From an uncultured Dehalococcoidales bacterium (GTDB lineage Bacteria > Chloroflexota > Dehalococcoidia > Dehalococcoidales > UBA2162), in contig CAZBAN010000003.1 in NCBI GenBank assembly GCA_964489895.1, positions 1 to 61,036 of the forward strand: DNA of 61,036 nucleotides, read 5' to 3'. This document shows, piece by piece, positions 6,777 through 50,853 of the stretch (the first letter of the stretch is position 1; the number at the start of each line of letters is the position of its first letter). Made by a program: the position numbers and the translations under genes. The notes below the pieces were generated by a model. That model did not search any database and was not told the DNA's origin. It worked only from the letters and a program-made list of their open reading frames with translations.

Positions 6777-6809
6777 GTGGACTACTGTCACTCCGAATGG
6801 AGGTGCCAC

Positions 6810-27564: not shown

Positions 27565-27919
27565 GGGGGCGCGCGGGTTCGACAGGGGAGGTATGCTACA
27601 GGATTGCAGGCTGAGGTGCCGCTAACCTCATAAAACAAGTGGCAAAAATAACTGGCGAAGAACCAGTATTAGTTGCCGCCTAATTAATTAGGCGGCACAT
27701 CCAACCTGACCTCACCCCGGCGGGTCAGGATTGGGTGACGTTCAGTCGGGGTGCCACCGCTCCGATGTCGATAAGAGTGGTGAAAGAAAAATCGGCTGGT
27801 CTGGCCGGACTCGGTCGGCAGAGGCCGGCATAGACGAGACTAAAGAGCCGGCTAAGCCTGTAGTATATTCTGGGTAGCCTCTTTTGGACGGGGAGTTCGA
27901 CTCTCCCCCGCCTCCACCA
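27565..27919 (+). ncRNA. ssrA: Transfer-messenger RNA
   Basis: The 5' GGGGGCG pairs with the 3' CGCCUCC-ACCA, with a G3-U pair. GGUUCGAC lies near the 5' end and the T-arm GGAGUUCGACUCUCCCC near the 3' end. The tag frame GGC..GCC GCC TAA (27654-27683) encodes GEEPVLVAA. The stop codon sits in a GCCGCCUAA/UUAGGCGGC hairpin. Confidence 0.9.
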
Positions 27920-27920
27920 G
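27892..27920 (+). repeat. Direct repeat copy 1 (genuine ssrA 3' end; attL-like)
   Basis: GGAGTTCGACTCTCCCCCGCCTCCACCAG matches 30662-30690 at 26 of 29 positions. Confidence 0.6.
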
Positions 27921-28098
27921 GAAGTTGAAAAGGGCTTCGGTGAAAACGGGAGTCTTTTTTAAATATTTATGTTTTCTTGTTTCTAATTCTTGTACTGACT
28001 TTCCGTTTAGTTTATAATCGCTATGCTTTTTTCTGCATTGATCAAACATCCGAACTTGATAAATGATATCGAATAATAAAGTAAAAGGAAGGAAATAA

Positions 28099-28566
28099 AT
28101 GGGAGAGTCAAAATTTGAACAGTACATTGTAAGAGACCTGTGGCATAAGTCATATCCTGAAGACTTCCATGCCGAGGTGACAAAACCGGTTCTGGGTATG
28201 AGGATTGATAAGATGCCAGGTTCCACCTATTTGCCCTTCGCGTTGTCCTGGGTGCCGATCACAGAAGCCTTTTTAATGGCGCCGGAACCTCATGTACACG
28301 ACTGGGATGAGTTTCTCATGTTCATCGGCGGAGATACTACCAACCTGTTAGACCTGGGGGGTGAAGTCGAATTTTCTTTGGGTGATGATCCAGACAACAT
28401 GGAAAAGTTTGTCTTCACAACACCCACGGTCGTTCATCTTACAAAAGGATTATGGCATTGCCCGCTCAATTTCAAGAGAGTAGATGATCCTGCCAAGCCT
28501 GTACTTTTCACGAACCTGATGTTTACAACTGATTACACGATGAAAAGAGCAAAAGACGTAAAATAA
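28099..28566 (+). CDS. Metal-binding cupin-fold protein (paralog of 44361-44855)
   Basis: Cupin motif 1 HVHDWDEFLMFIGG (HxHx3Ex6G) and motif 2 GLWHCPLN (Gx2Hx3N). RBS AAGGAAGG upstream. Confidence 0.6.
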   Translation: MGESKFEQYIVRDLWHKSYPEDFHAEVTKPVLGMRIDKMPGSTYLPFALSWVPITEAFLMAPEPHVHDWDEFLMFIGGDTTNLLDLGGEVEFSLGDDPDNMEKFVFTTPTVVHLTKGLWHCPLNFKRVDDPAKPVLFTNLMFTTDYTMKRAKDVK

Positions 28567-28865
28567 AAAGTACATGGTGTCCGGTCGGCTAAATCTCCTG
28601 GACTTAATCAGAATCGCCAGGATGATACCTGGCCCTGGACTAGACTAAACAAAACCAAGCATTGTTTCAGGTGGATATTGGAGGAGCAGATTCGTACTAT
28701 GCCGATTATGACTTAACAGGGCTACCGTTATTTGGGGGCAGTATAATTATTCAGTGATTAGCTTTTACCTCCCGAAATCGTAGGGAGTGAATATTATGAA
28801 TGAGAGGGTACCATAAACTACCGAAAATCCGACGTTTACAGTACCCTTTATTATCAGGAGGGAAT

Positions 28866-30614
28866 ATGGTAACAAAAGACAGAATATACAAATGTTTAAA
28901 CCCCATCGGAATCCAGGACCCGGTTGACTTATATCCTCTGGCGCCCCGCCTTGACCGGCTTGATGGAAAAACTATCATGTTCAACATGATGGTCAACGTT
29001 GAACAGGAATTTCTCACACCTTTAGAGAAAATGCTGAGGAGTAATTATCCCGAAGTCAACTGGATCTTCAGGGAGTCAGGTCCACCGATACCCGATGAGG
29101 AGCTAAGTAATACCGATGCCCTGATACAGGGAGTGGCATTCTGACATGGTGCTATTAAAGGGCAGTTGCCCCATGCAGCGCAATTCGAAAAAGTGGGAAA
29201 ACCGGCTGTAGTTATCGTCTTCGAAGACCAGGATGAATGCCTCAAGCAGGGAGCCCTGCTCCTCGGTATTCCCCATGTGCGAAGAGCATACTGCTCACGT
29301 ACAGGGAATGGAGTTGAAGATGCCGCCCGTATTATCAAGCCGTTGATGGATGCCCTGACCTTGCCTCTGACTGCGAAAGAAAAAGAAGGCGGCAGATGGG
29401 GAGTATCTGATAATAGGATAATTTTCGAGGGAACCCTCGACGAAGCTGAAGAATTCTATGAGCGTGCAGAAAAAGTCCCCGTTCTTGGAAATGCCTATAT
29501 ATCTCTCTATACGGATGGGATGGCGATAAGGATCCCCACCGAGGAGCGGGTACAGGCGATGCTGAAAGGCACCAGCCATAAGCCGGATGAAGTGATAACT
29601 CTTCAATCCGGTCATAAACAAAGAGAAATGGGGGTCGGAGGTAAGAAGGGTACTCCGGTTCGTTTTGAGCCTCTGAAACGTACAGCTACCGTTGAAAAGG
29701 TTGCCATCAACGCCGTGATGGCAGGATGCAGACCGGAGTATATGCCTGTACTTCTGGCGATTGCTGAAGCAGGAGGCGGTGGGGGGGACGGGCGTGGTAG
29801 TCTGGGATTTTGCGTTAGTGGCCCTATCGCTAAAGAGATAGGAATGAATTTTGATGTGGGGATGCTCGGACCAGGAAATCAGGCCAACAGGAGTATCGGT
29901 CGAGCTGCTGAGCTCATGTGGTGTAATCTGGGAGGAAATATCCCGAAAGTAACCAGCTGCGGAATCATGGGTAACCCGCTTTTTAACTGCTTCCCGGAGA
30001 ATATCGATGCCCTGCCGCCGGGCTGGAAAGGGGTGAATGAAGAGTACGATTTTAAGAAGGATGAAAGCGTTATTTATGTACTTGGTATGAGGGGAGGGCC
30101 TCCCGGTTCATTAACATTCCACAGCACCGAGTTTAGTCCTGGCAGATACAGGACGCTTCAGAAAAGCGGCAGCGGCGGTATGGCCAAACGCCTCGGTAAA
30201 GAAGGAATTCCCGGTCCTCATAACTGGCTGGAATACCAGGTACCCTCTTTATGGGCGGGTAAAGAAGGAGGCTATAATTTCATAATACTTCCGGAGATGG
30301 CACAGCATCTGTACGAAGCCGGTTTTAAGTCCAAGGATGAAGTCTACCAGTGGCTCTATGAGGCCAGTTTCATGCCATTCAGCGAGTACAGGAAACACGC
30401 CTCGCCCGATTTCCGGACAGGCGGCTGGAGGGGAGTAGAAAAAACTTCAGGTAAACCCTGGAAAGAGCTGCCAGATGACTATATGGTACCGGCTGTAGGC
30501 GATCCTTATGAGAACTGCATAATCGTTGCCGGCGGCGGCGAAGAGACGTCTCACTGGGTCAATGGCCGGACGCCCAGCGCAGACCCTGCATATGGAATAG
30601 ATGTCTGGCGTTAA
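28866..30614 (+). CDS. Candidate selenoprotein, type A copy 1 (582 aa; in-frame UGA at 29142-29144 is residue 93)
   Basis: ORFs 28800-29144 and 29166-30614 are in the same frame and separated only by TGA. HGAI.GQL just after the TGA is conserved with the paralog at 53620-55368. There is no SD or ATG for an independent downstream start. RBS AGGAGGG precedes ATG 28866. Confidence 0.7.
29145..29175 (+). promoter_or_regulatory. Candidate bacterial SECIS hairpin
   Basis: CATG/CATG outer pairs. Apical stem GGGC (29160-29163) with GCCC (29168-29171), and an AGUU loop about 23 nt downstream of the UGA. Confidence 0.45.
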
Positions 30615-30661
30615 ATCTTAATCACATTTATTGGGAAGCAAACCAGAGCATTATTTCAGGT

Positions 30662-30690
30662 GCAGTACGACTCTCCCCCGACTCCACCAG
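30662..30690 (+). repeat. Direct repeat copy 2 (degenerate duplicate of the ssrA 3' end; attR-like)
   Basis: GCAGTACGACTCTCCCCCGACTCCACCAG. The C-to-A change would disrupt acceptor-stem pairing, so this is not a functional tmRNA end. Confidence 0.6.
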
Positions 30691-30720
30691 AAAGGAATAT
30701 GTACCGGACTGTATAAGTGT

Positions 30721-32472
30721 TTAGTATCCCATCGCGGTTTTCATGTCAGTATCAATCCAGAAGTACATAAGGTATTCGTCGATGTTATCATTTCCACCGC
30801 CACCGATGGCTCCATAGAAGTTCTGGAGCCAGGGCCACCACACTACAAATGAATGAGGCGAAGGAAGATAAATCGGCACTGCCAGTTCAAGCTCGTAGGG
30901 ACCGATTTCCTTTAGTATCTGAGCTACTCTGGCATTATCTCTGCCAATGTACCGGGCGATTTCACTGTATGCTTCCTGGATGCGCTGGTCACTGACCCGG
31001 CTGTAATTATAAGGACTTCCCCCAATCATGGACATCATTTCCTGCGGTCTGAGAAGGTAGTCACTCCCGTAAAACGCCTGCTCGTAGGTTCCGCCCATCC
31101 AGGCAGTGAATTCCACTCTGGCAAGTTCCATGTCGATATTGATGGCTTTGAGGTATTCCTTGATTATCGCGAGAAAATCGATATGTTCCGCAGCACAATC
31201 TAGTCTAAAATTAAACCCGTCGGTGTAACCGGCCTCAGCCATCAACTCTCTGGCCCTCTCAACATCATAGCCGAATAAGTCCTGGACTACCTGAGACTGC
31301 TCTTCCAGAGGAGTATATATTCTATCGAATACCGGCAGATCCATGTATGGCCAGGCCAATAGCTCAGCGTGACCGCCGTAGTAATCATCCACTAGTTCCC
31401 GCTGGTTAACCACCAGGTTCATAGCGTACCGTATCCTGATATCGCTAAAGGGAAGAGCCCTGTTGTCGAGCCGGGGCCATATCATACTGGTAATAGAATT
31501 CGCAAACGATTTCACTTCCACTTCGGGGAGTTTTTTCTTCAGATAGTCGACATCTTCCCAGCCTGAGATAACCATCGAGGCAGTGGATATTGTGTCTATT
31601 TTTCCGTTGATAAATAATGCCTGTATATATTGTGCCACTTTGGTAGGAGCATTAAAAATCAATTCTTTCATACCGTCAGCGTAAGGTAACCGGTTCTCTG
31701 GATGAAGCGGATCCATCTGCCAGTAATTGGGATTTCTTACATACTCAATATAACTGTCTATAACATAGTTATCTATCATAAAAGGTCCGGTTCCGATGAA
31801 CTGCTGCCACTCCGTTAGAGTTTCACCTCCGTTCGCCTCTACAGCATCGGGGCATATCAGCCACATATGGTCGCCGATAACAGCCGCCATCATACCCTGC
31901 CACTCAGGTATGACCTTCACCTCGACGGTATGGTTATCAAGCGCTGTAGCCGAAAGTGGAGCCTTCCCGGTTATAGTGTAGTATCTATAATTGAAAGACA
32001 TCGGTGATGAGAATTGCCTTTCGATATTCCATGCGATATCTTCTGCGGTCACTTCTCTGCCGTTAGCCGGCTCTTTATCCCACCAGTGAACATCCGGGCG
32101 GATGTGATAGACGATAGTTTCGTTATCGGGCATTTCCCAGCTTTCCGCCAGTCTGCCAACAAGCGTATCCGTGAAACCACCGAAACCGCTCGTCCAGTCA
32201 TTTTCATTGGCGCCGGCCGGACCTCTCGTCCAGTCTCCACCGAGTAACTCTTCACCCATCATAGATATATTGAACATGTCTGTTCGGGCTGCATAATCCC
32301 ACGCATTCCAACTGGTAGTGCGTATACGGTAATGTATCCCGCCGTATTTCGGCACAGCTGGATCGGCATAATTAGTTACTATATTTTCTGTTTCTTTATC
32401 GCCGCACGATACTATCAACAGCGATGATAACATCAGGAAGCTTAATAAGATGTACAGGAAATGCTTTTTCAC
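30721..32472 (-). CDS. ABC transporter solute-binding lipoprotein, family 5 (peptide/nickel/oligosaccharide type)
   Basis: 583 aa. Signal peptide with lipobox IVSC, and a family-5 SBP-like pattern throughout. No permease or ATPase genes are adjacent. Confidence 0.8.
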   Translation of the reverse strand: MKKHFLYILLSFLMLSSLLIVSCGDKETENIVTNYADPAVPKYGGIHYRIRTTSWNAWDYAARTDMFNISMMGEELLGGDWTRGPAGANENDWTSGFGGFTDTLVGRLAESWEMPDNETIVYHIRPDVHWWDKEPANGREVTAEDIAWNIERQFSSPMSFNYRYYTITGKAPLSATALDNHTVEVKVIPEWQGMMAAVIGDHMWLICPDAVEANGGETLTEWQQFIGTGPFMIDNYVIDSYIEYVRNPNYWQMDPLHPENRLPYADGMKELIFNAPTKVAQYIQALFINGKIDTISTASMVISGWEDVDYLKKKLPEVEVKSFANSITSMIWPRLDNRALPFSDIRIRYAMNLVVNQRELVDDYYGGHAELLAWPYMDLPVFDRIYTPLEEQSQVVQDLFGYDVERARELMAEAGYTDGFNFRLDCAAEHIDFLAIIKEYLKAINIDMELARVEFTAWMGGTYEQAFYGSDYLLRPQEMMSMIGGSPYNYSRVSDQRIQEAYSEIARYIGRDNARVAQILKEIGPYELELAVPIYLPSPHSFVVWWPWLQNFYGAIGGGGNDNIDEYLMYFWIDTDMKTAMGY

Positions 32473-35025: not shown

Positions 35026-35463
35026 TTATCCGAGGATTTTTGGTGAGAACAGGTACTGCGTGGTCGTCTTCAGTGTTTTTCTGAGCTGGGAAAGCTGGGG
35101 TCCATATATTGTGATTCTGCCGTTATCGACGGTTACCGGCATATCCAGGACAGCCCTGATTACATCCTTTTCCACTTCGCTGCGGCAGATTACAGCCATC
35201 TCGTTCTGTCCCGGATTCACCTCGATGATCATGGGCAGCAGTAACGACTCCTGCTTATCGGAGGTTAATAAGCCTGACAGGTAGTCCAGTTCATTCCTTT
35301 TGAACAGATGGGTACTGCCGTCGTTACAGGTTACGTGTGGATATTCCTCTTCCAGCAAGTCCGAAAGCGTTTTTTGTTCGGAAGGCAGGTGGGCGTTCAG
35401 CAACCTGAGCTCGTCCTTTAACGATTCCTGAAGCATCCTTTCGTAAGGTGATTCGTCAGTCAT
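35026..35463 (-). CDS. UPF0216/DUF61-like protein (archaeal-type), last gene of the ATPase operon
   Basis: 145 aa. The pattern LNAHLP...L.DLL....P.V...DGS.H.F...EL..L...L......L.LP..IE is as I recall it from DUF61. Start abuts the atpD stop. Confidence 0.45.
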   Translation of the reverse strand: MTDESPYERMLQESLKDELRLLNAHLPSEQKTLSDLLEEEYPHVTCNDGSTHLFKRNELDYLSGLLTSDKQESLLLPMIIEVNPGQNEMAVICRSEVEKDVIRAVLDMPVTVDNGRITIYGPQLSQLRKTLKTTTQYLFSPKILG

Positions 35464-36102
35464 CTAGCCCCCCCTTTGCTCAAGCAGTGCTTTTACCCGC
35501 TTAAGGCGAGACTTCTCTTCTCTATCTCTCTCTTCGAACTTCATATAAAGGAACTTGATTGTCTCCTTCAGACCCGGAATTATCAGGTAGTCCAGGGCGT
35601 TTAGTATCCTCTTCGTCCGGTTGATTTCCTTTCCCAGTAGCTCGAGGCTGCTCTGCAGTTCAGCCAGCGCCACCATGGACCGGAGGCAGCTTTCAAACAG
35701 CTGCTGCGTCTGGTCTACGTATGCGGAGGTGTCAACCAGGCTGTAGCTTTTTACAGGTGTTTTGTCCTCTTTCAACTCGAAAGACACGACTCTCGCACCG
35801 GCTACGTTTCTCGACCCGGAAATCAGTTCCAGTTCTTTTTCCGAAGCCTGAAACTCTTTCTCCAGGGCAAGATAGCCGTGAAGACCACTGGCGACGGACA
35901 GCGACCTGTAAGCCATGGAGAACTCGTCGAGCATCTTTTGCCTTGCTTCTACTGTCTCTCTGGCTATCTGTAGAAATTCAAGCATGAGGATGGATAGCCT
36001 GTCTTTAATTATCTTCTGTATCCTTGTTGCCAGCGATAGACGGCGTCTGAGCCTGATAAGCTCAATCTTGGTCGGTCGGACCTTAATCGTCTGCTGAGTC
36101 AT
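35464..36102 (-). CDS. atpD: A/V-type ATPase subunit D
   Basis: 212 aa coiled-coil protein. [16 protein letters not shown]-terminus. Position after subunit B. Confidence 0.85.
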
Positions 36103-37516
36103 CTTCTGGTTCCTTATCGCTTTCGGTATGCTTCGGAAGATACTTCTTGATTAATTCTTCACTGATCAGTTTCAGGTCTTCTTCGGGCAGTGCCGAGAAC
36201 AGCTTCCACCCGATGTCCAGGGTATCGGTAACGCTTCTCTTTTCATACTCCTCCTGAGCAATAAACTCCCTTTCGAACCTGTCGGCAATTTCCAGGTATG
36301 TCCTGTCCCTGTCACTCAGGGCTTCGGTACCAATAATGGTGGATATTTCTCTCTCACTGTTGCCTTCCGAGTATGCCGAATAAAGCTGCATAAAGACGTT
36401 GTTATGGTCTTCTCTTGTCTTGCCGGGTCCGATACCCTCTTTCATCATCCGGGAGAGTGATAAAAAGACGTCTATCGGCGGGTAAATGCCTTTTCTTTCC
36501 AGCTCCCTCGAAATCACAATCTGACCTTCGGTAATGTAAGCGGTGAGGTCGGGAATCGGGTGGGTGATATCGTCGTCAGGCATGGTGAGGATGGGCATAA
36601 CGGTTATCGAGCCTTCCTTACCCAGAATCCTGCCGGCCCTTTCGTATATCGTCGCCAGGTCTGTGTACATATATCCGGGGTACCCCCGCCTTGAGGGTAT
36701 TTCCTCGCGCATTGCCGAAAGCTCGCGTAGAGCCTCGCAGTAATTGGTCATGTCGGTAAGCATAACCAGTATGTGCATATCGTGCTCCCAGGCGAGGTAC
36801 TCCGCGGCGGTTAAAGCCAGCCTTGGTGTCGAAATACGCTCGATGACGGGGTCCGAGGCTGTATTAATGAAAGCCACAGCCCTCTCCATAGCTCCCGTCT
36901 CCTCGAGGCTTCTGGTGAAGAAGGCAGCGTCATCATAGCTGATGCCGACGGCACCGAAGACGATGCCGAACCTTTCCTCCGTGCCTCTTACCGCAGCCTG
37001 CCTGATTACCTGAGAAGCAATCCGGTTATGCGGCAAACCAGAGCCGCTGAAGATGGGTAGTTTCTGTCCTCTGACCAGAGCGTTAAGTCCATCGATAGCC
37101 GAGATTCCGGTCTCGATAAACTCAGACGGAGGCATGCGGCTCGCCGGATTGATCGGCTGTCCGTTAATGTTCAGGTAATCCTCGGCGACTATAGCCGGTC
37201 CTCCGTCAATAGGTTCACCCATGCCATTGAAAATCCTGCCCAGGATGTCATCAGATACCGCCAGCCGCAGGGACTCGCCCCGGCACCTTAAGGTGCTTTC
37301 CTTAAGGTCTACTTCGCTGACGCCGCCGAAAACCTGGACTATAATAGCTTCGCTGCTGATATCGATTGCCTGTCCACGCTTTACCTCGCCGTCGGCGAGG
37401 ATGACATCGACAATCTCGCCGTACTTAACGCCGGGGATGTTCTCGGCAATCAGCAGCGAGCCTTTTGCTTTTTGTATAGCACTTGTTTCTCTAATATATA
37501 GTGGATTATCTGCCAT
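36083..37516 (-). CDS. atpB: A/V-type ATPase subunit B
   Basis: 477 aa non-catalytic subunit pattern ([22 protein letters not shown]). Confidence 0.93.
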
Positions 37517-39264
37517 CAGTCCGTTCCTTTACCAGCTAACAGATTTATTTCCATTTCCGACCACATGGTGTTAATTCTCTGTTCAAATACATCGTGTGGA
37601 ATATCCTTCATTCTGGATATTCTGTACACGAACGGTGAAGAGCGTAGCTCTGCTACACTCGTCCCTGAGGTAACCATACCTCTGGCAAGGTCATAGAACT
37701 TAATGATTGTCTTCAGCATCTTCTGGGCTCTTGCCGGCAGGCAGTATGTGTCGATTTCGTGGTAAGCGCTCTGCATGAGAAAGTCCTCGCGTATCATCCT
37801 AGATACCATGAGAACCAGTTTATCGTCTTCAGGCAGGGCTTCCGGACCGACCAGCCTCACAATTTCCTCCAGGTTGGCTTCCTGCTGAAGCAGTCTCAAA
37901 GTTGTTGCCCTGGTGCTTGACCAGTCGGGGTCGATTTCTGTCCACCACTTTTTAACTGAATCGGCGTACAGGCTGTAGCTGGATAGCCAGTTTATCGCCG
38001 GAAAATGTCTCTTGTTTGCCAGTGAGACGTCCAGTGAATACAGGGCTTCTATAATTCTGAGGGTATTCTGGGTAACCGGCTCACTGAAGTCGGCTCCGGG
38101 GGGGCTGACAGCGCCGGCGATAGTTACCGAGCCTCTCCTGTCCGGACTGCCTGTGCACTCGACAAGGCCGGCTCTTTCATAGAAAGAGGACAGCCTTGAA
38201 CCCAGATAAGCCGGGAACCCTTCCTCACCCGGCATTTCCTCAAGCCTGCCGCCGATTTCCCTCATAGCCTCAGCCCACCGTGAGGTTGAATCGGCAACCA
38301 GCAGGACGTCGTATCCCATATCCCGGTAATATTCTGCCATGGTAGCACCGACATAGATGCTGGCTTCACGGGCTACCACCGGCATGTTGGAGGTATTGGC
38401 AATAAATACCTCTTTTTCCTGTAATAACCTGCCCGTGTTGGGCTCTTTTAGCTCTTTAAAACTGTACAGCACGTCAGCCATCTCGTTGCCTCTTTCGCCG
38501 CAGCCGACGTAGATGTTCAACTGGGTCTGCGCCCACCTCGCCAGCTGCTGAAGGGTAACGGTCTTTCCGGTGCCGAACCCTCCCGGAAAGCAGGCTTTAC
38601 CACCCAGGGCAAGGGGGAACATGTAGTCTATAATCCGCATACCGGTTACCAGCAGCCTTGAAGGGTCGAACCTTTGTACGTAAGGGCGCGGTTTTCTGAC
38701 AGGCCACCTGTGCATCATCGTTATCTCCACTACCTTGCCGTCCTGCTCCACCAGCAGGACGGGTTCCTCCACGGTGAAATCTCCTCTGCGCGCCTCTTTT
38801 ACCACACCCTTGATTCCAGGAGGAACCATTACCCGGTGTTCGATGAGGTGAGTCTCCGGAACAGTACCAACTATATCCCCGGTGCTAACCTTATCCCCGG
38901 CTTTGACCGTAGGGGTAAACTGCCATTTCTTATTACGGGGTAGAGCCAGTGTTTTTCTACCTCTTTGCAGAAAATTGCTATCCTGCATCAAATCAACGAG
39001 AGATTCCTGCAATCCATCATATATAGAGCCGACGATACCGGGTCCCAGCTCTGCCGTCAGGATAGCGCCGGTCTCTCTGACCTGCTCGCCGATGCCCAGC
39101 CCCTGGGTCTCCTCGTGAGCCTGGATAATCGCTTTATCACCTTCCAGGCCGATTATCTCTCCGACAATTCCTTCATCACCTATCTCGACAATCTCGTAGA
39201 CCTGGGCGCCGACCATATCCTCGGCTATAACCACAGGTCCGGAAACCCTCCAAGTTTTACCCAT
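37516..39264 (-). CDS. atpA: A/V-type ATPase catalytic subunit A
   Basis: 582 aa. Walker A GGFGTGKT and the non-homologous insert typical of A subunits. Confidence 0.95.
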
Positions 39265-39289
39265 AGCTTTCTACCTCCGCAAACGGCAG

Positions 39290-39643
39290 TTAAATCTCCA
39301 CATCGAACCCGGTGAAAATCCTAACGAATGATTTGTAATACTCGGCAACATTTTCGTACTGTGTACCGGATTTTAATGGCAACGTAATTATTGCCGGGGT
39401 CAGTCTTTTACTTTCTTCCAGTTCAGATATCATGTCATCGGCGTAGATTGCGTAATCTTCCTGGATGCCTATAATACCGATACCGGGTTCATCTATCAGA
39501 CCGGCAAGTATATTCCTGACGTTTTCTCTGGCAGCAGGTTCATCCGCTATCACGAAATACTTCTTGACGCCAGCGAGCCTGAGCCCGTTGACCAGGTCTT
39601 CATCGCCTATCAGGGCTATACTTAAACTACTGACGGGTGTCAT
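39290..39643 (-). CDS. atpF: A/V-type ATPase subunit F
   Basis: 117 aa. IALIGDEDLVNGLRLAGV pattern. Position between subunits C and A. Confidence 0.8.
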   Translation of the reverse strand: MTPVSSLSIALIGDEDLVNGLRLAGVKKYFVIADEPAARENVRNILAGLIDEPGIGIIGIQEDYAIYADDMISELEESKRLTPAIITLPLKSGTQYENVAEYYKSFVRIFTGFDVEI

Positions 39644-40677
39644 GATGCCATCACCAGATAATCCTTTATTTCGTCCACGGTAATATTGTCGAACACTGCT
39701 TTCAGGATGAGCCGCAGGTTCCGCAGCTCCGTCTCCTTCACGATGAAGTACCAGACTGCCATCAGGGGTGACATTACCCGCGGCGATAGTGTCTCCCGGC
39801 TCATCTTGAATTTGTGTTTCTCGATTATTTCATCAACCACGCTAATGTTTTTGCCTTTATCGTAGCTGCTTACGACCTCTTCGGCTATCCGGGAGTACCG
39901 GTCACTTTCCAGCCTGTCGGGTATCTCATTAAGCTTGAGTGACATCATCTCCCGTATCGCCTCCACGGAAATCCTGTACCCGCCGCTAATAGTACCGGCG
40001 GTATCTGCAGCCATACCACCGATAACCGCCCTGAATATAAGCTGAAGGTTGGTCATATCAATCATGGTGCCCAGAGCCCTGGCAAGCATAGAACCGTCCA
40101 TCACCTGTTCTGCTACTCGCACCAGAGTCCTGTAGTACTCATTATCCAGCTTGCTATCAACTGGCAATCTTGCCCCATCACCTTCGTCAGTTCCGTATTC
40201 CTCCACAATTGCGGCGTATCCATGCAGACCGCACTTGACCAGCAGGTCAGCGATACCATCCGTATCATCGGCATCGGAGAGTTCTTCGAGCAGCCCGTTT
40301 TTACTGATTACTCCCACCGGCACCATACTGGCTTTCCTGCCGGATGAGATACCCAGTAAAGCTGCCTTTATATTTAACACATCGTACTTGTTGATATACA
40401 CACCGAGTAGCTTTAAAATCTCCGGGGTGACCGAGGCGAACCTTTCCAGACGACTGAAGCAATCATCCAGATAGCGCCATAAATGGTTGTCCACGTCGTT
40501 AAAGGTCTTTATGGATGCACCTTCGAGGTATGTACCGATGTCGGTCTCTCTGATAGCATCCATAATGTCCTGGACACTGGTGAGCCTGGTCATACTATTG
40601 ATATGACCTGAACCGATAATCCTGGCTTCCTCACCCTTCAGGTAAGCCGATATGAATGCGTATCCGTCGTCTGACAA
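39640..40677 (-). CDS. atpC: A/V-type ATPase subunit C (V0 d-like)
   Basis: 345 aa helical protein. NLRLILKA motif. Operon position. Confidence 0.8.
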   Translation of the reverse strand: MSDDGYAFISAYLKGEEARIIGSGHINSMTRLTSVQDIMDAIRETDIGTYLEGASIKTFNDVDNHLWRYLDDCFSRLERFASVTPEILKLLGVYINKYDVLNIKAALLGISSGRKASMVPVGVISKNGLLEELSDADDTDGIADLLVKCGLHGYAAIVEEYGTDEGDGARLPVDSKLDNEYYRTLVRVAEQVMDGSMLARALGTMIDMTNLQLIFRAVIGGMAADTAGTISGGYRISVEAIREMMSLKLNEIPDRLESDRYSRIAEEVVSSYDKGKNISVVDEIIEKHKFKMSRETLSPRVMSPLMAVWYFIVKETELRNLRLILKAVFDNITVDEIKDYLVMAS

Positions 40678-40686
40678 GACTATCTC

Positions 40687-41268
40687 CTACCTAGATTTAA
40701 AAAGCTCCTTGTTGATATCAGGCATAATCTGAGGGAGCAGTTGCTCCAGCCTGGCGTCATAGCTATTGTCTATTCTGTTCCTGCCTTCGATATCCTCGGC
40801 AATGACTCCGCCCAGACAATCGTGTTCCCTGACTTCCTGAATTTTCCCTGCCAGTTCCCTGTCTTCTTTAACCAGTTTCTTTGCTTCAGCCGTATCCTTT
40901 GGCGAAACATAAAGCACCGCTTTAGCAACACCAAGCGCCTCGACTGACTCTTTAATCAGGCCAAGGAGGGCACTTTTTCCGGCAGAGGAGCCGGACAGTT
41001 TCTCTTTTACTCTGCTGACGATGTCATCGAGTATCTGCTGTTTGGCGGCTGAAAGTTCCTGCCGTGCTTTTATAGAAGCCTGGGCATGAATGCGGGCTGC
41101 TTCACCCTCGGCTTCATCCATCAGCCAGCCTTTTTCAACTTCAAACCTGGCTTCCTGCTGTTTGACTGCCTCGTCCAGCCTCTCCAGTGCTTTTTCCTCG
41201 GCAGCTTTCACGATTTCTTGAGCCTCAGTCTTAACCTTATCCAGAATTGCTTCACCGATTTTGTCCAT
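40687..41268 (-). CDS. atpE: A/V-type ATPase subunit E
   Basis: 193 aa. A long N-terminal charged helix followed by a globular C-terminus. Operon position. Confidence 0.8.
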   Translation of the reverse strand: MDKIGEAILDKVKTEAQEIVKAAEEKALERLDEAVKQQEARFEVEKGWLMDEAEGEAARIHAQASIKARQELSAAKQQILDDIVSRVKEKLSGSSAGKSALLGLIKESVEALGVAKAVLYVSPKDTAEAKKLVKEDRELAGKIQEVREHDCLGGVIAEDIEGRNRIDNSYDARLEQLLPQIMPDINKELFKSR

Positions 41269-41280
41269 AGCATTCAGTCC

Positions 41281-41757
41281 TTACATGAGTCCCAGCATTG
41301 TCAGTGACATTATGGCGAACACCAGACCGAGTACGCCGAGTAGTTCTACAAACACGGCAAGCATGATGGCATTGGTCAATATTGCGCCCTTCGTCTTTGG
41401 CAGGAGGGATATACCGGAGGCGCATACTTTGCCCTGGTATATCGCCGAGAAGCACTCGGCAGCACCGGCAATCAGCCCTGTACCGAGTACCATGGCGCCA
41501 CCGCCTCCTTCCGCCGATATATTAGGCACCACTGCGGTAATAATCAGTATCAACACTATCAGCCCGTAGAATGTCTGGGTCATCGGCAGAGACGCCAGAA
41601 TGATGACATTTCTGAACTGTCCCGATTCTTCTGATAGAGTTGCCGCGCCTGCCGAACCGGCAATACCTATACCTATCGAAGAGCCTATAAGACCTCCAAT
41701 CAGAGCCAGGGCTCCACCAATAGCAGCCAGAGCTGCGGGGTCAAACAACATTTTCAA
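41281..41757 (-). CDS. atpK: A/V-type ATPase proteolipid subunit K (4-TM duplicated c subunit) with the Na+-site residue set
   Basis: 158 aa. SLPMTQTFYG, FSAIYQGKV and AVFVELLG align with Enterococcus hirae NtpK LLPGTQGLYG, FSGIAQGKV and AMVETYA. Confidence 0.88.
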   Translation of the reverse strand: MKMLFDPAALAAIGGALALIGGLIGSSIGIGIAGSAGAATLSEESGQFRNVIILASLPMTQTFYGLIVLILIITAVVPNISAEGGGGAMVLGTGLIAGAAECFSAIYQGKVCASGISLLPKTKGAILTNAIMLAVFVELLGVLGLVFAIMSLTMLGLM

Positions 41758-41777
41758 CCTCCTTCTTCGAGACCTTG

Positions 41778-43772
41778 CTATCTTATCGTTAGTGGTATGA
41801 CCGCCCGCTTCTTTAGCCTGAACGGGCTGTACTCATTACCTCCGCCTTCGTAGAACTTGAAAAGAAACTCCACAAAACACAACCTGAGGGAGTGCATAAA
41901 ACCGGTAATGGCAGTCAGTACCATATTTACCGTGTGTCCGAATATGATAATTACCACTCCCAGAATTCCGCCGATTATAGCGCCGGCTACACCGGGTATC
42001 ATCCCACTGAACAGCTCTGCCATCAGGTTAAAGGTGGATGCCAGGTAGAACGTAGCCAGACCCACACCGGCAAGCCGGGCGTAGGACATAACGTCACCCA
42101 GAAGCCCGGTGATGTCAAACAGCCACAGTATCGCCCCCAGGCCACCGCTCTGCATTACACTTGAAACGATAATTACCAGGACACCTCCCGCCATGACATA
42201 CGACAGTATGGAGTAAAGCTGCGGGGTGAATCCGGGTATATTGACATTAAGCAGAGAATTAAGTATGGACGGTATTCCGAACTGGACGGCAAAAAGTCCT
42301 ACCTTACCGAGTATCACTCCTCTGTTCTTATCTTTAATGCCCTTGATGAGAGCCATAATATGACCGATATTCACGTGGATGAAACCGATGCCCAGAGCCA
42401 GGACGATAAACGAAACGGGGTCCTGGAGTAACTCCTTGACTCCCTGGCTGAGAGCCAGGTCTTCAAATCCGAACAACGTATAGATATTGCCCAGGTACTG
42501 TCCGGTAAGCAGACCACCGATAAGGGCTACTCCGCTGCATATATAGAGCAACTTCTGAAACAGCTTGAAGTTCTCCGAGTCAGGGTCATCGACAAACTTA
42601 GCCAGCAGAAACCTGCCAAGCAGCATGATACCCAGGGCGTAAACCACGTCGCATACCATAATACCGAAGAAAAGAGCGAAGGAATAACTCAGTATTGGAG
42701 TGGGGTCCCACTCTCTGTACCTGGGAGTACCGAACAGGTTAACAATCACGTGAAACGGTCTGAACCCGGCAGGGTTATTCATTTTAGTGGGAGGTTCTTC
42801 ATCCGGTCCTGCCTCTCTGGTATCGATAAATATATCGTCTATGGTATCTTTAAGCTCCGATATGGTGGACTCGACACTGCTTTCAGGCATCCAGCCCTGA
42901 ATAAGAATTACGTATCTGGCTTCACACGCCTTTTCCAGGACTGCCAGCCGCTCGTTCTCCGATAGCAGTACCTCCCTGAGCAGGACAAGCCTGTTTATGT
43001 TTTCACTGGTGGCTTCAATAAGTCTGTCCTGAAGTCCGGAGAGTTCCTGCTGAAGACCGGATAATCTATCGCTGAGCTGTACGATATATTCCTGAAGCGA
43101 GTAGTCCTCGTCGGGTATCTGGAGAATCTTTCCCTCTACTCCCGTCACCAGAGATTCAATATCTTCAAGGTCCTTTACCTTGCCAATGCCATAAACAACG
43201 TTCTCGTCCTCTGCTGTAGCGACGATAGTCTCCAGAGGTCGGTCTTTTAGACTGTCTTTAACGTTCCTGAACGACTCACCGCGAAAAACGAAAACACGGG
43301 AGAAAAGATAATCGCCGGTAAATTTAAGGTCACGCAATTTCAGACCTGTCTGCCCTGTTTGCCGGGCAAGCGGTTCGAGGTACTTCTTCAACCCGCTCAA
43401 CTCTTCAATTTTTTCCGCAGGTCTGACCGTTCGCTGGTACATGTTATGGAGCCTCGTATAGAGTGACTCAACTTCGCCGTTCAGTTCATGTAAAGGCCGG
43501 GTGTAGATTACTTCAACATTCTCGGCTGGAATTAACGCTTCTTTATCGGGCAGATAGGATAGAATGGTATTAACGTTGTCCAGCAGGTGAGTGACTTCGT
43601 GGTGCTGGTCTTCAATAGCCGCCCTGTCAACCGGGCTCAGCTCTTCACTGGTATCGATATGCAGCACTCCAGCCTTATGCAGGGCTTTGAGAGTATTTTC
43701 CGAATCTTCTTTCATGGTCAATACTTTGACCTTGACCATGGTTTCGGGGGTATTAACCACAACAGGTATCAT
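41778..43772 (-). CDS. atpI: A/V-type ATPase subunit I (a-like stator/proton-channel subunit)
   Basis: 664 aa. A soluble N-terminal half and a polytopic C-terminal half containing the conserved Arg context (SYARLAGVGLA). Confidence 0.9.
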   Translation of the reverse strand: MIPVVVNTPETMVKVKVLTMKEDSENTLKALHKAGVLHIDTSEELSPVDRAAIEDQHHEVTHLLDNVNTILSYLPDKEALIPAENVEVIYTRPLHELNGEVESLYTRLHNMYQRTVRPAEKIEELSGLKKYLEPLARQTGQTGLKLRDLKFTGDYLFSRVFVFRGESFRNVKDSLKDRPLETIVATAEDENVVYGIGKVKDLEDIESLVTGVEGKILQIPDEDYSLQEYIVQLSDRLSGLQQELSGLQDRLIEATSENINRLVLLREVLLSENERLAVLEKACEARYVILIQGWMPESSVESTISELKDTIDDIFIDTREAGPDEEPPTKMNNPAGFRPFHVIVNLFGTPRYREWDPTPILSYSFALFFGIMVCDVVYALGIMLLGRFLLAKFVDDPDSENFKLFQKLLYICSGVALIGGLLTGQYLGNIYTLFGFEDLALSQGVKELLQDPVSFIVLALGIGFIHVNIGHIMALIKGIKDKNRGVILGKVGLFAVQFGIPSILNSLLNVNIPGFTPQLYSILSYVMAGGVLVIIVSSVMQSGGLGAILWLFDITGLLGDVMSYARLAGVGLATFYLASTFNLMAELFSGMIPGVAGAIIGGILGVVIIIFGHTVNMVLTAITGFMHSLRLCFVEFLFKFYEGGGNEYSPFRLKKRAVIPLTIR

Positions 43773-44083
43773 CCGGACTTTGCTCCAGAGATAGTATTTA
43801 CAATATTCTCGACTATTCCGTCCAACTTTTTGCCGGCTGTTGTCTTCAGTTCCCGAGCCTGTTTTTTAGCATCAGATACCCGGGAATCGGCTTCTTCTTT
43901 TGCTATAGCTATGATTTTCTCGCAGTCGGCTTTTACTTTATCGAGAGACAACTCGGAAGAGACGATTTGCTGGCTTTCCTCTTTAGCATTCTGGAGGATT
44001 TCATTTGCCTTTTGCCTGGCGGCTTCCAGTATACTTTCGGCTCTGGCTTCGATATCTTCTACACTACCGGTAATTTCATCCAT
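43769..44083 (-). CDS. A/V-type ATPase small peripheral-stalk subunit (H/G-like)
   Basis: About 104 aa charged helical protein. I prefer ATG 44083 because AAGAGGTG lies 8 nt upstream. ATGA overlap with subunit I. Confidence 0.65.
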   Translation of the reverse strand: MDEITGSVEDIEARAESILEAARQKANEILQNAKEESQQIVSSELSLDKVKADCEKIIAIAKEEADSRVSDAKKQARELKTTAGKKLDGIVENIVNTISGAKSG

Positions 44084-44360
44084 ATAAACGACACCTCTTG
44101 TTTGTTTAGTGCCATCAGTCAAGGTTTAGCGTATAAACATAATCGGTGCTGACTGATCAGGATTGACCTCCAATAATTTCGGAAATGATTGTCCAGACCT
44201 GACAACCGGATTAATGATAAACGACACAAACCGATAATTATTATAGCTGAAGTTCCTTCAATATGAAAGCCCTGATTGATGGGTGGAAATGTAAAGCTGG
44301 TATTAACCCGGTAATCGTTATATATTATAATAATAGTCTGTATAAGGAGGTAATTATAAA

Positions 44361-44855
44361 ATGGAGCATAAAAAATACTGGAGAAATGTGATTCAGGGGC
44401 CGTTTTTTAAGGCACCGGAACCCGGGATGACCGGCACGTCGATATTCGCTCATCACAATGAGTACGGGAATGGTACTACCCTGGGTTACCATTGCATTAA
44501 CACGAATTATGAAGTACCGTTCTCTCACTCCCATGATTTTCATGAATTACTGTGCTTTATCGGCGGGAACCCGGAAGATATAAACGATTTGGGAGCGGAA
44601 ATCAGCATCTGCCTGGGTGATGAACAGGAGGAACATATTATTACCAGTGCTACGGTTGTATCTATCCCGCCGGGCTTAAAGCATTGTCCCCTTAAAGTGA
44701 ATAAGATTTCCAAACCCTTTGTATTTCTGGAGGTATCAACGACTACAGGGTATGCCAATAACATGGGAGAGACGGCAGAGGTCCTATTAAAGCCGCCAGA
44801 CATGCCCGAAAGCAAGCCGGAAAAAACAAAAGAACAACCCGAACCTGAGAGTTAG
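44361..44855 (+). CDS. Metal-binding cupin-fold protein (paralog of 28099-28566)
   Basis: HSHDFHELLCFIGG (HxHx3Ex6G) and GLKHCPLK motifs. RBS AAGGAGG upstream. Confidence 0.55.
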   Translation: MEHKKYWRNVIQGPFFKAPEPGMTGTSIFAHHNEYGNGTTLGYHCINTNYEVPFSHSHDFHELLCFIGGNPEDINDLGAEISICLGDEQEEHIITSATVVSIPPGLKHCPLKVNKISKPFVFLEVSTTTGYANNMGETAEVLLKPPDMPESKPEKTKEQPEPES

Positions 44856-44917
44856 TACGGAGCTGTAGCCTGACCTGGAATAAGCAGGGTTTACCCCGAA
44901 TCTACCAGTAATAAAGA

Positions 44918-44948
44918 CGGTCCCGACGTTTTATCATCGGGACCGTTT
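44918..44948. terminator. Bidirectional hairpin between convergent genes
   Basis: CGGTCCCGA/TCGGGACCG 9-bp stem with a 10-nt loop. T-run on the + side and A-run on the other side. Confidence 0.55.
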
Positions 44949-45010
44949 AGTATGAGGACTAGGAATATATTGCAGAGTCGGCTGCCTGCCTCCTGTAAAT
45001 GCCGTTCGGA

Positions 45011-45949
45011 TTACCAGTCCGGCGGACCTACCTTTTGCTGTTTATCATAAATCGGGGTATATATGGTGCTGAAATTCTTCATAACAGCCCACCTTTCTTC
45101 ATTAAAAGGCTCGTCGGGTATTGCCCGGATAAGAGCGTCGTGGCGACCGATATAGCCATCCCGGAACTCGGCATGGGTGTGGATAAAGAGGTCGTTACGC
45201 TTGATACCCCGCATCACTCGTTCGCCGGTCTCCAGCGGGTCCATGAAAACTGATTCCATATCTAACGACGGGCGTTGCCGACCTTCCTGTCCGGGAGGTG
45301 GCTGAGGCGGCCAGGTCTCTCCCTCGTTCCTCAGGTGTTCGGGACGGTTTTCGAAAGTAGACTGCCCCAGGTTACCCCTCGTCGGTCCGGGGTACAGTAT
45401 GGAAACTCCTATATTTTTATCCTCAAGCTCGGAGGCAAGACACTCCATAAAGCCAGTTACGGCATACTTGGATGTGCAATAGATAGCGAAGTTGGCTGTA
45501 GCCATAAGGCCGCATGTAGAGGACGTGGAAACGATATGCCCGCCCTCACCGTGCTTAAGGATGCGGGGCAGGATGGTCAGCACGCCGTTGATAACACCCC
45601 CGATGTTGACACCCATGGAGTAGTCCCAATCTTTGAATGTTGTATTCTCCGTAGGGACACCGCCTGTACCTACACCGGCGTTATTGACCAGGACATGTAT
45701 CTTGCCGAAGACGGCTTCCGCTTCATCGGCAGCCTTAACGTAAGCCTCCCGGTCGGTCACGTTCAGGTTGATGGGATGGACTTCACCACCGTTTTCCCTG
45801 AACCATGCCATAGCCTCATCCAGAGCGTGCTGACGCGAATCGATGATGACAACCTTCATTCCGTTTTTCACGAATACCTTGGATATGCCCAGACCGATGC
45901 CACTGGCACCGCCGGTGACAAAGGCTGTTTTTCCTTCAACATTCTCCAT
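45011..45949 (-). CDS. Short-chain dehydrogenase/reductase, SDR-1
   Basis: TGGASGIGLG cofactor loop, NNAG, and catalytic S...YxxxK (YCTSK). I prefer ATG 45949 because GGAGG lies upstream. Extended C-terminal helical tail shared with SDR-2 and SDR-3. Confidence 0.88.
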   Translation of the reverse strand: MENVEGKTAFVTGGASGIGLGISKVFVKNGMKVVIIDSRQHALDEAMAWFRENGGEVHPINLNVTDREAYVKAADEAEAVFGKIHVLVNNAGVGTGGVPTENTTFKDWDYSMGVNIGGVINGVLTILPRILKHGEGGHIVSTSSTCGLMATANFAIYCTSKYAVTGFMECLASELEDKNIGVSILYPGPTRGNLGQSTFENRPEHLRNEGETWPPQPPPGQEGRQRPSLDMESVFMDPLETGERVMRGIKRNDLFIHTHAEFRDGYIGRHDALIRAIPDEPFNEERWAVMKNFSTIYTPIYDKQQKVGPPDW

Positions 45950-46004
45950 TTGAATACCTCCATAATTACTTGAACTATGTCTCAGGTTATGCTGATTATT
46001 ATTT

Positions 46005-47702
46005 TTACAGCCGGATACCACAGGTGCCTTCGGCACAGGCTACGGGTTCAGGCATGCGGAGCGGTCTGGCATCCTTCTTAATTCCGGCTTTGGGAATCCA
46101 GGGGTCTATAACCACGGTCTGGAAATGAGAGAAATCGGTGGTGACCCACATCGGATTCATTTCACCGCCGACGACAATGAAGTTGAGCCTCTCTGGATCT
46201 TTAAACTGGAACTCCGTGTTCTTAACAAGCCACTCACTGAGTTTCATCGGGTCATTATAGCCTTCATCATTTTTAAGACTCTTGGCTACCAGCGGGTCGG
46301 TGAGGAACGTAAATGCTCCGCCGAACGGACCACCCAGACTCTTTATGACATCGAGCATCCGCTGAGAAGGTCCTATTCCCTGGGTGAGGACATTCCAGCC
46401 GCGGAAAAGACTTACCGTGCTTTCTTCCTTTTTATAACCTTTACGGACGTGGAAAGGCTTCCAGGGACTTTGTTCTTCGTTCTCTGCGCAGCACATGTTG
46501 TTGTAGTTTATTGTGGTCCCGGTGCTGGCTGTGAATGTAGCCCCGGGACGCATGTCACCGAAGTTTATACTCATCAGCGTCCATGCCCGACCGATAACCG
46601 AATTGGCGTAGTTTACCGGGCTCAGGGCACCGAGCCCTGAGTTCATGCCGATTTCATTCCTTACGGGACCGTTTACCACCATCATGCTGGCGAAGGAGGT
46701 GGTGGAACTGGGCAGGGAAGGTCGCCCCGATTCTCCCAGGGCTAAAATAACCGGGAAATGCTCCGGCCTGCACCCTGCCATGACGGCGATGACGGCACAT
46801 TTCTCCACCGTATATTTGAGTCTTTCCTCATGGGTGGTTACGGACATCATGCCGACGTGTTCATCCGGGGCATGGTCTGTTCCGGTAAGCATCTCCGCCA
46901 CGCGTTCCTCGGTCGGCAGGACTATCGGGAGACCATCAGTCCAGCCGTTTTCCATGAAAAGGCGATGCAGGTTTTCTTCCGTATCCGGTTCCAGCAGGCG
47001 CTCACGTTCCGGTCTTATTTGCGCCTTAAAGGTTTTTTCATTTTCGGATAAAGGCCGGGTGAGAGCGTTATCAATCTCTTCCACGAGCGGCACGCCGGTA
47101 ACCGGGTCGTTGCCTTGAATATAGCCCTTAAGGGTCTCACGGGGCACCCATCCGACCGGGTAAGGAGGGTATGTGAAGCGGAGTGCCATTCCGTGACTCC
47201 GGCAGTCGCGTTCAACATAATCGGCAAACCGGGCGGTGACGATAGGAGCTGTCGGCATGCCGTAATCGTTTTCCATCGTGCGTGAGAATTCGGCGATACT
47301 CGCCGAACAGCCGTCTCAGCCGCCGACGCCGAAGACAACGGCGTCACCGTTTTTCTTTATCTCTTCCCAGAGTTCGGGTTCGTCGGTGAACATGCTGGAA
47401 GCCTTGTTTTTCAGGACGGTCTTTACTCCGGGGCGGTTTTTTGAGAACCAGTTCTGGAGTTCCTCCAGGAATTCTCTGGCGCCGGCAAATCCTGTGCCAA
47501 CCAGGTAAAGGGTCTTGCCTTCCAGGGTGTCGAGTCTCTCCGCCATCTTCAGCGAGCTCAGATTTTCAGCAGTGTCTCTCGGCTGATACGTGGGGTCGTG
47601 GATAGCGAACATTGGTGAGTCCGCATTGAGTCGCCGTCCGAAGATGCCGCTTGGCTGACCGACCGGGTCAAGTACTGCCATTTTAGTATCTTTTATACCC
47701 AT
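46005..47702 (-). CDS. Candidate selenoprotein, type B copy 1 (565 aa; in-frame UGA at 47316-47318, motif GVGG-U-DGC)
   Basis: ORFs 47316-47702 and 46005-47276 share one frame. The 13 codons between the TGA and the first ATG (DGCSASIAEFSRT) are conserved with the paralog at 50854-52530. About 70 percent identity to that paralog by eye. Confidence 0.7.
47289..47307 (-). promoter_or_regulatory. Candidate bacterial SECIS hairpin
   Basis: On the coding strand, UUCGGCGA-GUA-UCGCCGAA begins about 9 nt after the UGA. Confidence 0.45.
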
Positions 47703-47739
47703 GTACTCCTTCCTATCTTTGTTCGGTTCTTACCTGAAC

Positions 47740-49392: not shown

Positions 49393-49434
49393 CGTTTTGT
49401 TCTCCTTACCTGACCTGCAATCTTTTTCTTTTTT

Positions 49435-50403: not shown

Positions 50404-50595
50404 TATTACTTTCTCCTTCCCCTTTTTATTTAGAATTAGCGTAATATAAACTGTACGAAATTTCAACTCCCGTTTATTCTACCTGGAGTAAAGATGGATT
50501 CGGGAAATTCTCTATAAAACAGATTATTTAGTATTTTGTTATTGGTCTCGAAGAGTTTTTATATATCGATTGTTATAAAAGGGGATTTTATATTA

Positions 50596-50706: not shown

Positions 50707-50853
50707 TAGTTCTTTCATCCAAAACCAAATAGACCCTGATATTTTGGAAATCAGCATTGTGTGAGTGTTATAATAATACCCAAGCCTGATAAAGAAACAC
50801 CGATCTATCGGTACTTGTTTATAATGGCTATATTCTACACAGGAGAGCTGAAC

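Follow-up and report, generated by a model that had tools for sequence, protein, structure and literature searches.

Genes and features of the locus

The DNA studied here is a stretch of 61,036 nucleotides (nt), hereafter the window, from contig CAZBAN010000003.1 (assembly GCA_964489895.1) of an uncultured Dehalococcoidales bacterium. Directly downstream of its transfer-messenger RNA (tmRNA) gene, ssrA, lies a short segment that holds a small cupin gene and the gene A1, whose frame is crossed by a single TGA codon, and that closes with a degenerate copy of the ssrA 3' end. In the joint reading that we favor, with a probability of roughly 0.8, A1 encodes a selenocysteine (Sec) protein of 582 amino acids (aa) and the segment represents two mini-cassettes without a recombinase of their own at the 3' end of ssrA. 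The features concerned are the following.

27565-27919, + strand: ssrA (tmRNA gene), detected with ARAGORN and by Rfam RF00023 (170.5 bits, full length)
27890-27919, + strand: left repeat (attL core), the last 30 nt of ssrA, GGGGAGTTCGACTCTCCCCCGCCTCCACCA
27920-28675, + strand: cassette 1 (cupin), from the ssrA end to its right arm AAAACCAAGCATTGTTTCAGG (28651-28671)
28099-28566, + strand: cupin gene, 155 aa, assigned on its predicted fold, with motifs H65-x-H67-x3-E71-x6-G78 and G117-x2-H120-x3-N124
28676-28689, no strand: junction, a short unique stretch replacing 2.65 kb of the array found in contig L094 (blastn, manual alignment)
28690-30689, + strand: cassette 2 remnant with A1; right arm at 30640-30660, then the degenerate ssrA-end repeat
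28866-30614, + strand: predicted type A1 selenoprotein gene, 582 codons followed by TAA, with a single in-frame TGA at codon 93
29142-29144, + strand: UGA codon 93, read as selenocysteine (context GVAF-U-HGAIKGQLP)
29160-29171, + strand: hairpin GGGC-AGUU-GCCC resembling a selenocysteine insertion sequence (SECIS), starting 16 nt after the UGA
30660-30689, + strand: degenerate direct repeat of the ssrA 3' end (attR core, GTGCAGTACGACTCTCCCCCGACTCCACCA), 26 of 30 positions identical

The ATG of A1 is preceded by a strong AGGAGG ribosome-binding site; a promoter and terminator scan of the ssrA-flanked segment gave nothing above chance. Its closest paralog in the window, A2 (53620-55368, + strand), likewise comprises 582 codons, the 93rd being TGA (context GVIW-U-HGAIWGQL), and the two proteins share 61% identity. 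Three remoter paralogs, 28-30% identical (47702->46005, about 49395->47740, and about 50851->52530), carry TGA at the aligned position within the motifs U-D-G-C, U-S-T-C, and U-D-G-C, respectively. These paralogs with U-D-G-C and U-S-T-C are termed B1, B2, and C, and A1 and A2 have U-H-G-A. The initial annotation had described 28866-30614 as a fifth UGA-containing paralog with TGA at residue 93 and the same 582 codons as the gene at 53620-55368; translation and a count of five TGA-bearing paralogs in the window agree with it on each point. Within the window, in-frame TGA is confined to these five paralogs, and 12 of 55 genes end in TGA as an ordinary stop. The genome has not reassigned this codon.

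UGA-93 as a probable selenocysteine codon

We compared A1 with 80 metagenome loci encoding type-A relatives, which together provide 88 gene copies covering the UGA position. The aligned codon is TGA in all 88, never TGT or TGC, and tblastn alignments across residues 1-582 pass through the TGA in every case. A cysteine stands at the Sec position (VVW-C-HGAIW) in the full-length homolog P0011 (585 aa, 56% identical); such homologs are rare. More distant full-length homologs show CGSC, CPGC, CGVC, or CSTC there, or have lost the residue. The AlphaFold2 model of P0011 is one compact two-domain protein (predicted local distance difference test score, pLDDT, 89.8; predicted template modelling score, pTM, 0.91). 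Public gene calls split the gene near-universally into pieces of ~92 aa and ~480 aa that are annotated as hypothetical, and since the database calls are nearly all ~480-aa C-terminal fragments, the TGA is pervasive in the family. By this comparative evidence UGA-93 most likely encodes selenocysteine.

The public annotation implies that the TGA is a true stop and that proteins of 92 aa and 473-482 aa are the products of separate genes, which we consider highly improbable. It is true that gene callers split the gene in every contig and that a TTG start is available at 29166, but reading frame and protein similarity run across the TGA in every copy, Cys-containing homologs are single polypeptides, the predicted model packs both parts into one fold, and a hairpin 3' of the TGA covaries and is conserved at synonymous sites (see below). 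The initial annotation had read A1 as a Sec protein while allowing that its halves might be independent genes. The former is supported by the 88 copies, the Cys homolog, and the covarying hairpin; as for the latter, the halves are collinear and in frame in all 88 copies and continuous in the Cys homolog. What counts against selenocysteine, and in favor of separate genes, is that Sec machinery was not seen in the window: ARAGORN and Rfam found no tRNA-Sec in the 61 kb, and selA, selB, and selD were not among the 42 open reading frames (ORFs) by whose Pfam scans the window was annotated. The NiFe hydrogenase large subunit encoded in the window is the Cys form (DPCIACAIH) and so gives no independent evidence of Sec use.

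A SECIS-like hairpin downstream of UGA-93

In a comparative alignment of 80 distinct sequences, the hairpin occupies columns 18-31 after the UGA and its loop is AGUU. Within the hexamer CAGTTG, C22, A23, and G24 are invariant and T25-G27 are conserved at 90% or more, and this conservation includes the synonymous third positions of Gln and Leu codons. Three stem pairs switch between GC and AU, with A-U present in 12, 7, and 14 sequences. Paired cells amount to 90.8% versus 84.3% in shuffles, and double-sided changes to 34 cells versus 9.7. The observed pairing and covariation values were reached by 0 of 500 shuffles and every slid control was lower; the test overstates independence, however, because the sequences share descent and the stem lies within coding sequence, overlapping conserved codons, a point that speaks against the hairpin. 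Because single-sequence folding z-scores of the SECIS regions are weak, support for the hairpin comes from the comparative analysis.

Judged by its sequence, the hairpin is a candidate bacterial SECIS element, being a stem-loop downstream of the UGA with G/U in its apical loop. The loop G/U lies ~21-23 nt after the UGA, an arrangement that we take to resemble the SECIS of Escherichia coli fdhF. Aided by the hairpin at 29160-29171, decoding of UGA-93 as selenocysteine would yield one 582-aa selenoprotein.

Domains and putative function of the A1 family

Residues 11-139 of A1 match Pfam PF24696 (UGSC) marginally, at 25.3 bits versus a gathering threshold of 25. Of 61 relatives, 27 match the same model, the best of them at an E-value of 3.1e-34, which makes the N-terminal domain a diverged member of the UGSC type. 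Proteins with this domain form a known but uncharacterised selenoprotein family that is abundant in aquatic metagenomes (PMC2398784; PMC13188914). A1 resembles this family (PMC2398784; PF24696; NF041046) in its N-terminal match, in having Sec at the equivalent position, and in that its sister paralogs retain U-x-x-C. It differs in several respects. The U-G-S-C / U-x-x-C motif is absent from A1 and A2, which have U-H-G-A and no resolving Cys; neither gives a match to NF041046; and they possess an extra domain of ~400 aa, whereas the canonical UGSC protein is short. With NF041046 (the NCBIfam UGSC equivalog; 147 positions, cut-off 125 bits) A1 gave no match, P0011 scored 13 bits, and other fusion relatives scored 47-54 bits. 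No other NCBIfam model matched A1 or the C-terminal parts of the paralogs.

The ~400-aa C-terminal domain is marked by the conserved motifs W-TDGLP-x3-PTEE, GTSH-PDE, TVEKVAxNAVMAGC-PE, GPI-KEIGMN, and N-AN-IGRA, and no Pfam or NCBIfam model covers it. A sequence search of the PDB with A1 returned only noise (E>0.5). A Foldseek search of the PDB with the full-length model gave generic alpha/beta matches over the N-terminal domain only, with template modelling (TM) scores of at most 0.18, and the C-terminal domain had no PDB fold match at E<=1e-3. A 'UGSC/Unknown_1' fusion was noted in ocean metagenomes in 2008 (PMC2398784). At E<=1e-3 the family comprises 2,103 representatives at 50% identity, and most matches with a named organism come from Dehalococcoidales and Chloroflexota.

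In the P0011 model, the residue at the Sec position lies between a beta-strand and a helix of the UGSC-like alpha/beta domain. Sec-93 would act there as a redox-active selenol and, since type A has U-H-G-A in place of U-x-x-C, would be resolved by a thiol located elsewhere. The C-terminal domain presumably binds the substrate. A1 is thus a putative selenol-based oxidoreductase whose substrate would be a small organic compound taken up by the cell, the redox chemistry and the substrate being inferred elements of this explanation.

Several full-length non-Sec homologs (P0214, P0219, P0238, P0244, P0274, and P0278) start with hydrophobic segments like those of signal peptides or lipoproteins. To judge from these leaders, such family members may be extracytoplasmic. 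No signal-like leader is present in the five paralogs of the window.

Gene neighborhoods of the family

Genes for family-5 solute-binding proteins occur near 15 of the 80 type-A loci, often directly upstream and on the same strand; same-strand genes of this kind stand directly upstream of type A in many contigs unrelated to one another, namely L125, L128, L136, L138, L142, L144, L152, L153, and L161. Such adjacency may point to the class of substrate. Tandem type-A copies are common among these loci, and short-chain dehydrogenase genes were found near 4. In the window, an SBP_bac_5 gene (30721-32472) lies just outside attR, convergent with A1.

The main cluster of the window (44361-55368) combines the remaining paralogs with three short-chain dehydrogenase genes, with which the B and C paralogs alternate; two of the three dehydrogenases are 70% identical.

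45011-46036, 49435-50466, and 52570-53514: short-chain dehydrogenase genes

A paralog of the cupin gene lies at one end of this cluster, and a V/A-type ATPase operon (35026-44122) adjoins. A small ORF just after A2 (about 55473-55802) looks GIY-YIG-like by eye. An exact look-up of two window proteins returned no match.

The cupin gene

No cupin family of Pfam or NCBIfam matches the protein encoded at 28099-28566 at E<=0.1. Its AlphaFold2 model (pLDDT 92.6) has 98 PDB matches at E<=1e-3, and the 50 listed are nearly all of the cupin fold, including quercetinase and, at E about 1e-5, cupin-type phosphoglucose isomerase (PGI), MncA, oxalate decarboxylase (OxdC), and vicilins. The residues H65, H67, and H120 are invariant in 38 cupin relatives. 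On the basis of this model, the protein is assigned to the cupin superfamily. The initial annotation had placed this cupin gene ahead of A1 and a paralog of it (44361-44855) next to the main cluster; both placements hold, the two products sharing 40% identity over 83 aa.

Orthologs of the cupin (83-88% identity) were found in at least three unrelated contexts (L008, L009, and L012). In L008 (5681-6474) the ortholog, 84% identical, follows a tRNA-Ala(CGC) gene at a distance of 245 nt; insertion at the end of that tRNA gene was considered and rejected, as no tRNA-end repeat follows the ortholog. A double cupin (6809-7891) adjoins the ortholog in L009. Contig L001 carries further small cupin paralogs (2016-4011) beside phosphotriesterase-family and metallo-beta-lactamase genes, in an element upstream of its cupin cassette.

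Two gene calls at this position deserve comment. Many database homologs of the cupin, such as P0121-P0124 and P0130 (200-212 aa), are called ~57 aa longer, in a frame that is open back to the ssrA-end repeat; the longer calls probably reflect an over-extended start. A 124-aa ORF on the opposite strand (27852-28226, -), which appears as a 65-aa gene call in JGI contigs, extends across the 3' end of ssrA into the first part of the cupin gene. It is probably spurious, although the dsiB gene of Dehalococcoides overlaps attL in the same way.

Repeats of the ssrA end

The last 24 nt of ssrA recur at 30666-30689 with 2 mismatches, a match obtained in 0 of 100 shuffles. The claim of the initial annotation that the cassette lies between the true ssrA 3' end and a degenerate copy of it is borne out, with the repeats at 27890-27919 and 30660-30689. 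The attR site is also present in the same-lineage contigs L002, L005, L093, and L099. At every cassette end the ssrA-end core is preceded by a conserved arm of ~21 nt, AAAACACAGCATTGTTTCAGG, so that arm and core form a unit with the pattern CATTGTTTCAGG-N2-GAGTTCGACTC...CCACCA. Within the window the arm matches at two places only, 28651-28671 and 30640-30660. The att core that follows the cassette 1 arm in L094 and L001 is missing here.

In the tmRNA T-loop, at 27902, the window has GTTCGACTCTCC versus GTTCGACCCTCC in L002/L093 and L013, one base apart. The cassette-borne repeats have the T variant, like the ssrA of the window. Taken at sequence level, this base difference could mark the position of a crossover.

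Cassettes in sister contigs

By exact look-up of the cupin protein, we retrieved same-lineage contigs arranged like the window (L002-L006, >99% identity) and a different contig, L001. Homology to the window spans 27890-28675 in L001, opening precisely with the first base of the repeated ssrA end, and in L094 it starts at this base too. Contig L001 contains the cupin gene alone, between two copies of GGGGAGTTCGACTCT(C/T)CCCCGCCTCCACCA; it has no tmRNA gene, and its neighboring genes are unrelated. The cupin cassette of the window is 97.6-97.7% identical at the nucleotide level to L001 9793-10577 and L094 92-876, both of which have intact ssrA-end repeats on either side.

The array in L094 has four ssrA-end copies (at 95, 875, 2793, and 5498) that delimit three cassettes, and each of the last three copies is preceded by AAAACACAG(C/T)ATTGTTTCAGG. 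Cassette 1 encodes a cupin with 98.7% aa identity to that of the window, cassette 2 a 455-aa protein, and cassette 3 a different cupin-like protein, cup3 (153 aa, 38% identical to the window cupin), followed by an A1 ortholog (93%). Window positions 28690-30693 correspond to L094 3525-5528 at 92.1% nt identity, and this stretch ends in a perfect ssrA-end repeat in L094. Relative to L094, the window is missing 2.65 kb, comprising the att2 core, cassette 2, att3, and cup3, with the break at the arm/core boundary; cupin and A1 thus became neighbors in the window only secondarily.

These arrays bear on the proposal that the cupin and A1 form a functional two-gene cassette or operon and were acquired together, which we regard as unlikely. 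Three observations are in its favor: cup3 and the A1 ortholog occupy a single cassette in L094, the main cluster is flanked by a cupin paralog, and a type-B-like paralog adjoins the cupin ortholog of L009. However, the orthologous counterpart of the window cupin (98.7% aa, 97.7% nt) is the single-gene cassette that L094 and L001 carry between repeats of its own, and not cup3, with which the window cupin shares 38% identity; and the right arm of the cupin cassette survives in the window at 28651-28671. A1 orthologs in L007, L173, and L174 have no cupin. The single cupin-plus-Sec-protein cassette of the initial annotation thus stands as an ssrA-flanked insertion and falls as a single unit, since L094 and L001 show two separate cassettes. 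Pairs of cupin and type-A genes seldom recur elsewhere, a cupin being nearby in only 2 of the 80 type-A loci.

Evidence for insertion

In the reading that we prefer, each insertion at the ssrA 3' end would have duplicated the last ~30 nt of ssrA, and the recombinase that moves the cassettes would be supplied in trans from another locus. The window would derive from an L094-like array, in the order cupin, 455-aa-protein cassette, and cupin3 with A1, through loss of the 2.65 kb at the arm/core boundary.

Among the other species recovered, the closest with a comparable flank is that of L013 (SmpB 93% identical, ~81% nt identity over 4.7 kb upstream). Contig L013 is collinear with the window up to 27923, has unrelated DNA after ssrA, and contains neither cassette. 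A1-clade orthologs with 88-90% protein identity occur in at least three unrelated neighborhoods (L007, L173, and L174/L175), without a cupin or ssrA. One of these, L007, is the complete genome CP070800.1, in which the A1 ortholog adjoins APH and isochorismatase genes and is directly followed by the arm and the first 11 nt of the core. In a neighbor-joining tree, A1 and its orthologs form one clade and A2 of the main cluster belongs to another; A1 thus did not arise by recent duplication of the gene in the main cluster.

The segment might instead be ancestral at ssrA, with the degenerate copy a relic of local duplication and the genes lost from related lineages. The arrangement is indeed common to the same-lineage contigs L002-L006, L093, and L099, the composition is not strikingly foreign, and a comparable flank was recovered from only one other species. 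We nonetheless judge this course of events quite unlikely: L001 and L094 hold the same modules between intact repeats, in arrays whose opening repeat has no ssrA gene joined to it; orthologs turn up in various unrelated contexts; and arm-plus-core units stand at every cassette end. The view of the initial annotation that the segment is mobile or was acquired separately from the main cluster accordingly gains support from the repeats, the alternative arrays, the absence from L013, and the separate A1 and A2 clades brought out by the phylogeny. The comparison of synteny at ssrA agrees, as the sole related species recovered with the flank lacks the cassettes, and no related genome was found to carry them at ssrA without repeats, as an ancestral state would predict.

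Some observations pull in the other direction. A slight drop in GC content is confined to the cupin cassette (0.42-0.46 versus ~0.51), the GC content of A1 being unremarkable. No recombinase was found in the segment or among the 42 ORFs scanned, so that mobility in trans is something we infer, as is any mobility at the present day. The attR copy carries 4 mismatches and the internal att is gone; the cassettes may therefore now be fixed in place.

A search of a viral contig collection for the ssrA-end core gave no match and hence no phage-borne attP. No further copies of the ssrA end bound the main cluster, even with up to 10 mismatches allowed, and the main cluster therefore lies outside the ssrA array. 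An insertion of the whole 27.9-55.5 kb region as one element was also considered and rejected, as the match in L013 covers no more than 138 nt of a small gene, and no att site lies close to it. This fragment (L013 9081-9218) is 80% identical to window 55574-55711 and lies ~230 nt downstream of ssrA.

Copies of the ssrA 3' end recur after ssrA in a second Dehalococcoidia genome, L030 (Dehalococcoidia bacterium OZ240221.1, 8515-13760), at +1975 and +4867. They delimit a 2.0-kb unit with a 360-aa ORF and a 2.9-kb unit with 385-aa and 424-aa ORFs. The ~40 nt after each repeat are also conserved, and the cassette genes lie on both strands. No recombinase was seen in these units, whose ORF products were not scanned against family libraries. 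Repeats of this kind were present at only 1 of 35 ssrA loci examined. Given the small ssrA-repeat units of L030, the miniature format may be widespread.

Relation to known mobile systems

The closest known system is that of the Dehalococcoides ssrA genomic islands (ssrA-GIs), tandem islands downstream of ssrA that are bounded by a 20-bp repeat of the ssrA end (McMurdie et al. 2011, PMC3146451). Sixteen of them carry a DsiB/DsiA serine-recombinase integration module, and the 15 of 31 without it were proposed to be cis-mobilizable (PMC3146451). The present cassettes share with these islands the class Dehalococcoidia, the site at the 3' end of the single-copy tmRNA gene, direct repeats, tandem arrays, and variable accessory cargo. 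They are far smaller, however, at 0.78 to ~2.7 kb with one or two genes, and their repeat is ~30 nt plus a 21-nt arm, compared with the 20 bp reported. Their cargo is a selenoprotein, cupin, or 455-aa-protein gene instead of reductive dehalogenases, and the host is a Dehalococcoidales bacterium other than Dehalococcoides itself. The DsiB/DsiA, ParB, and Mom module is not present between the repeats of the window, and with no integration module there the segment is grouped with the module-less islands of PMC3146451.

Cis-mobilizable elements (CIMEs) and the accretion of islands at tRNA and tmRNA genes offer a second comparison. Like these, the present elements are flanked by att sites, lack genes for recombination or transfer, and accrete in tandem next to other elements (PMC3146451); they differ in that their mobilisation is putative and one internal att has been lost. 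Integron arrays likewise consist of one- or two-gene units separated by a conserved site, and the units of L094 all have the same orientation. The repeated site here is the T-arm and acceptor end of ssrA instead of an attC hairpin, no IntI or attI was found, and the cassette genes of L030 occupy both strands.

A bolder idea, which we put forward as tentative and rather doubtful, is that the arm-plus-ssrA-end units are the sites of a dedicated, integron-like gene-capture system in Dehalococcoidia. Cassettes of 0.8-3 kb with single metabolic genes, selenoprotein genes among them, would be stockpiled in arrays downstream of ssrA and shuffled there by a recombinase whose gene lies at another locus, and would be more than the remnants of larger, decayed islands.

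Significance

Both components are of known kinds, namely UGSC-type selenoproteins and Dehalococcoidia ssrA islands, in unusual variants; what is new is the miniature, integron-like scale and the selenoprotein cargo. A very large family (>2,000 clusters at 50% identity) is systematically mis-annotated in Dehalococcoidales and Chloroflexota: its conserved UGA is taken for a stop codon, and two hypothetical ORFs are called in place of one gene. Its type-A branch, without U-x-x-C and with a confidently modelled ~400-aa domain that lacks known relatives, is a target for new selenium biochemistry. On the reading favored here, selenoprotein genes would travel as very small units bounded by ssrA repeats, and the ssrA-island model, earlier tied to dehalogenase genes, would extend to other Dehalococcoidales and to a cassette-like scale.

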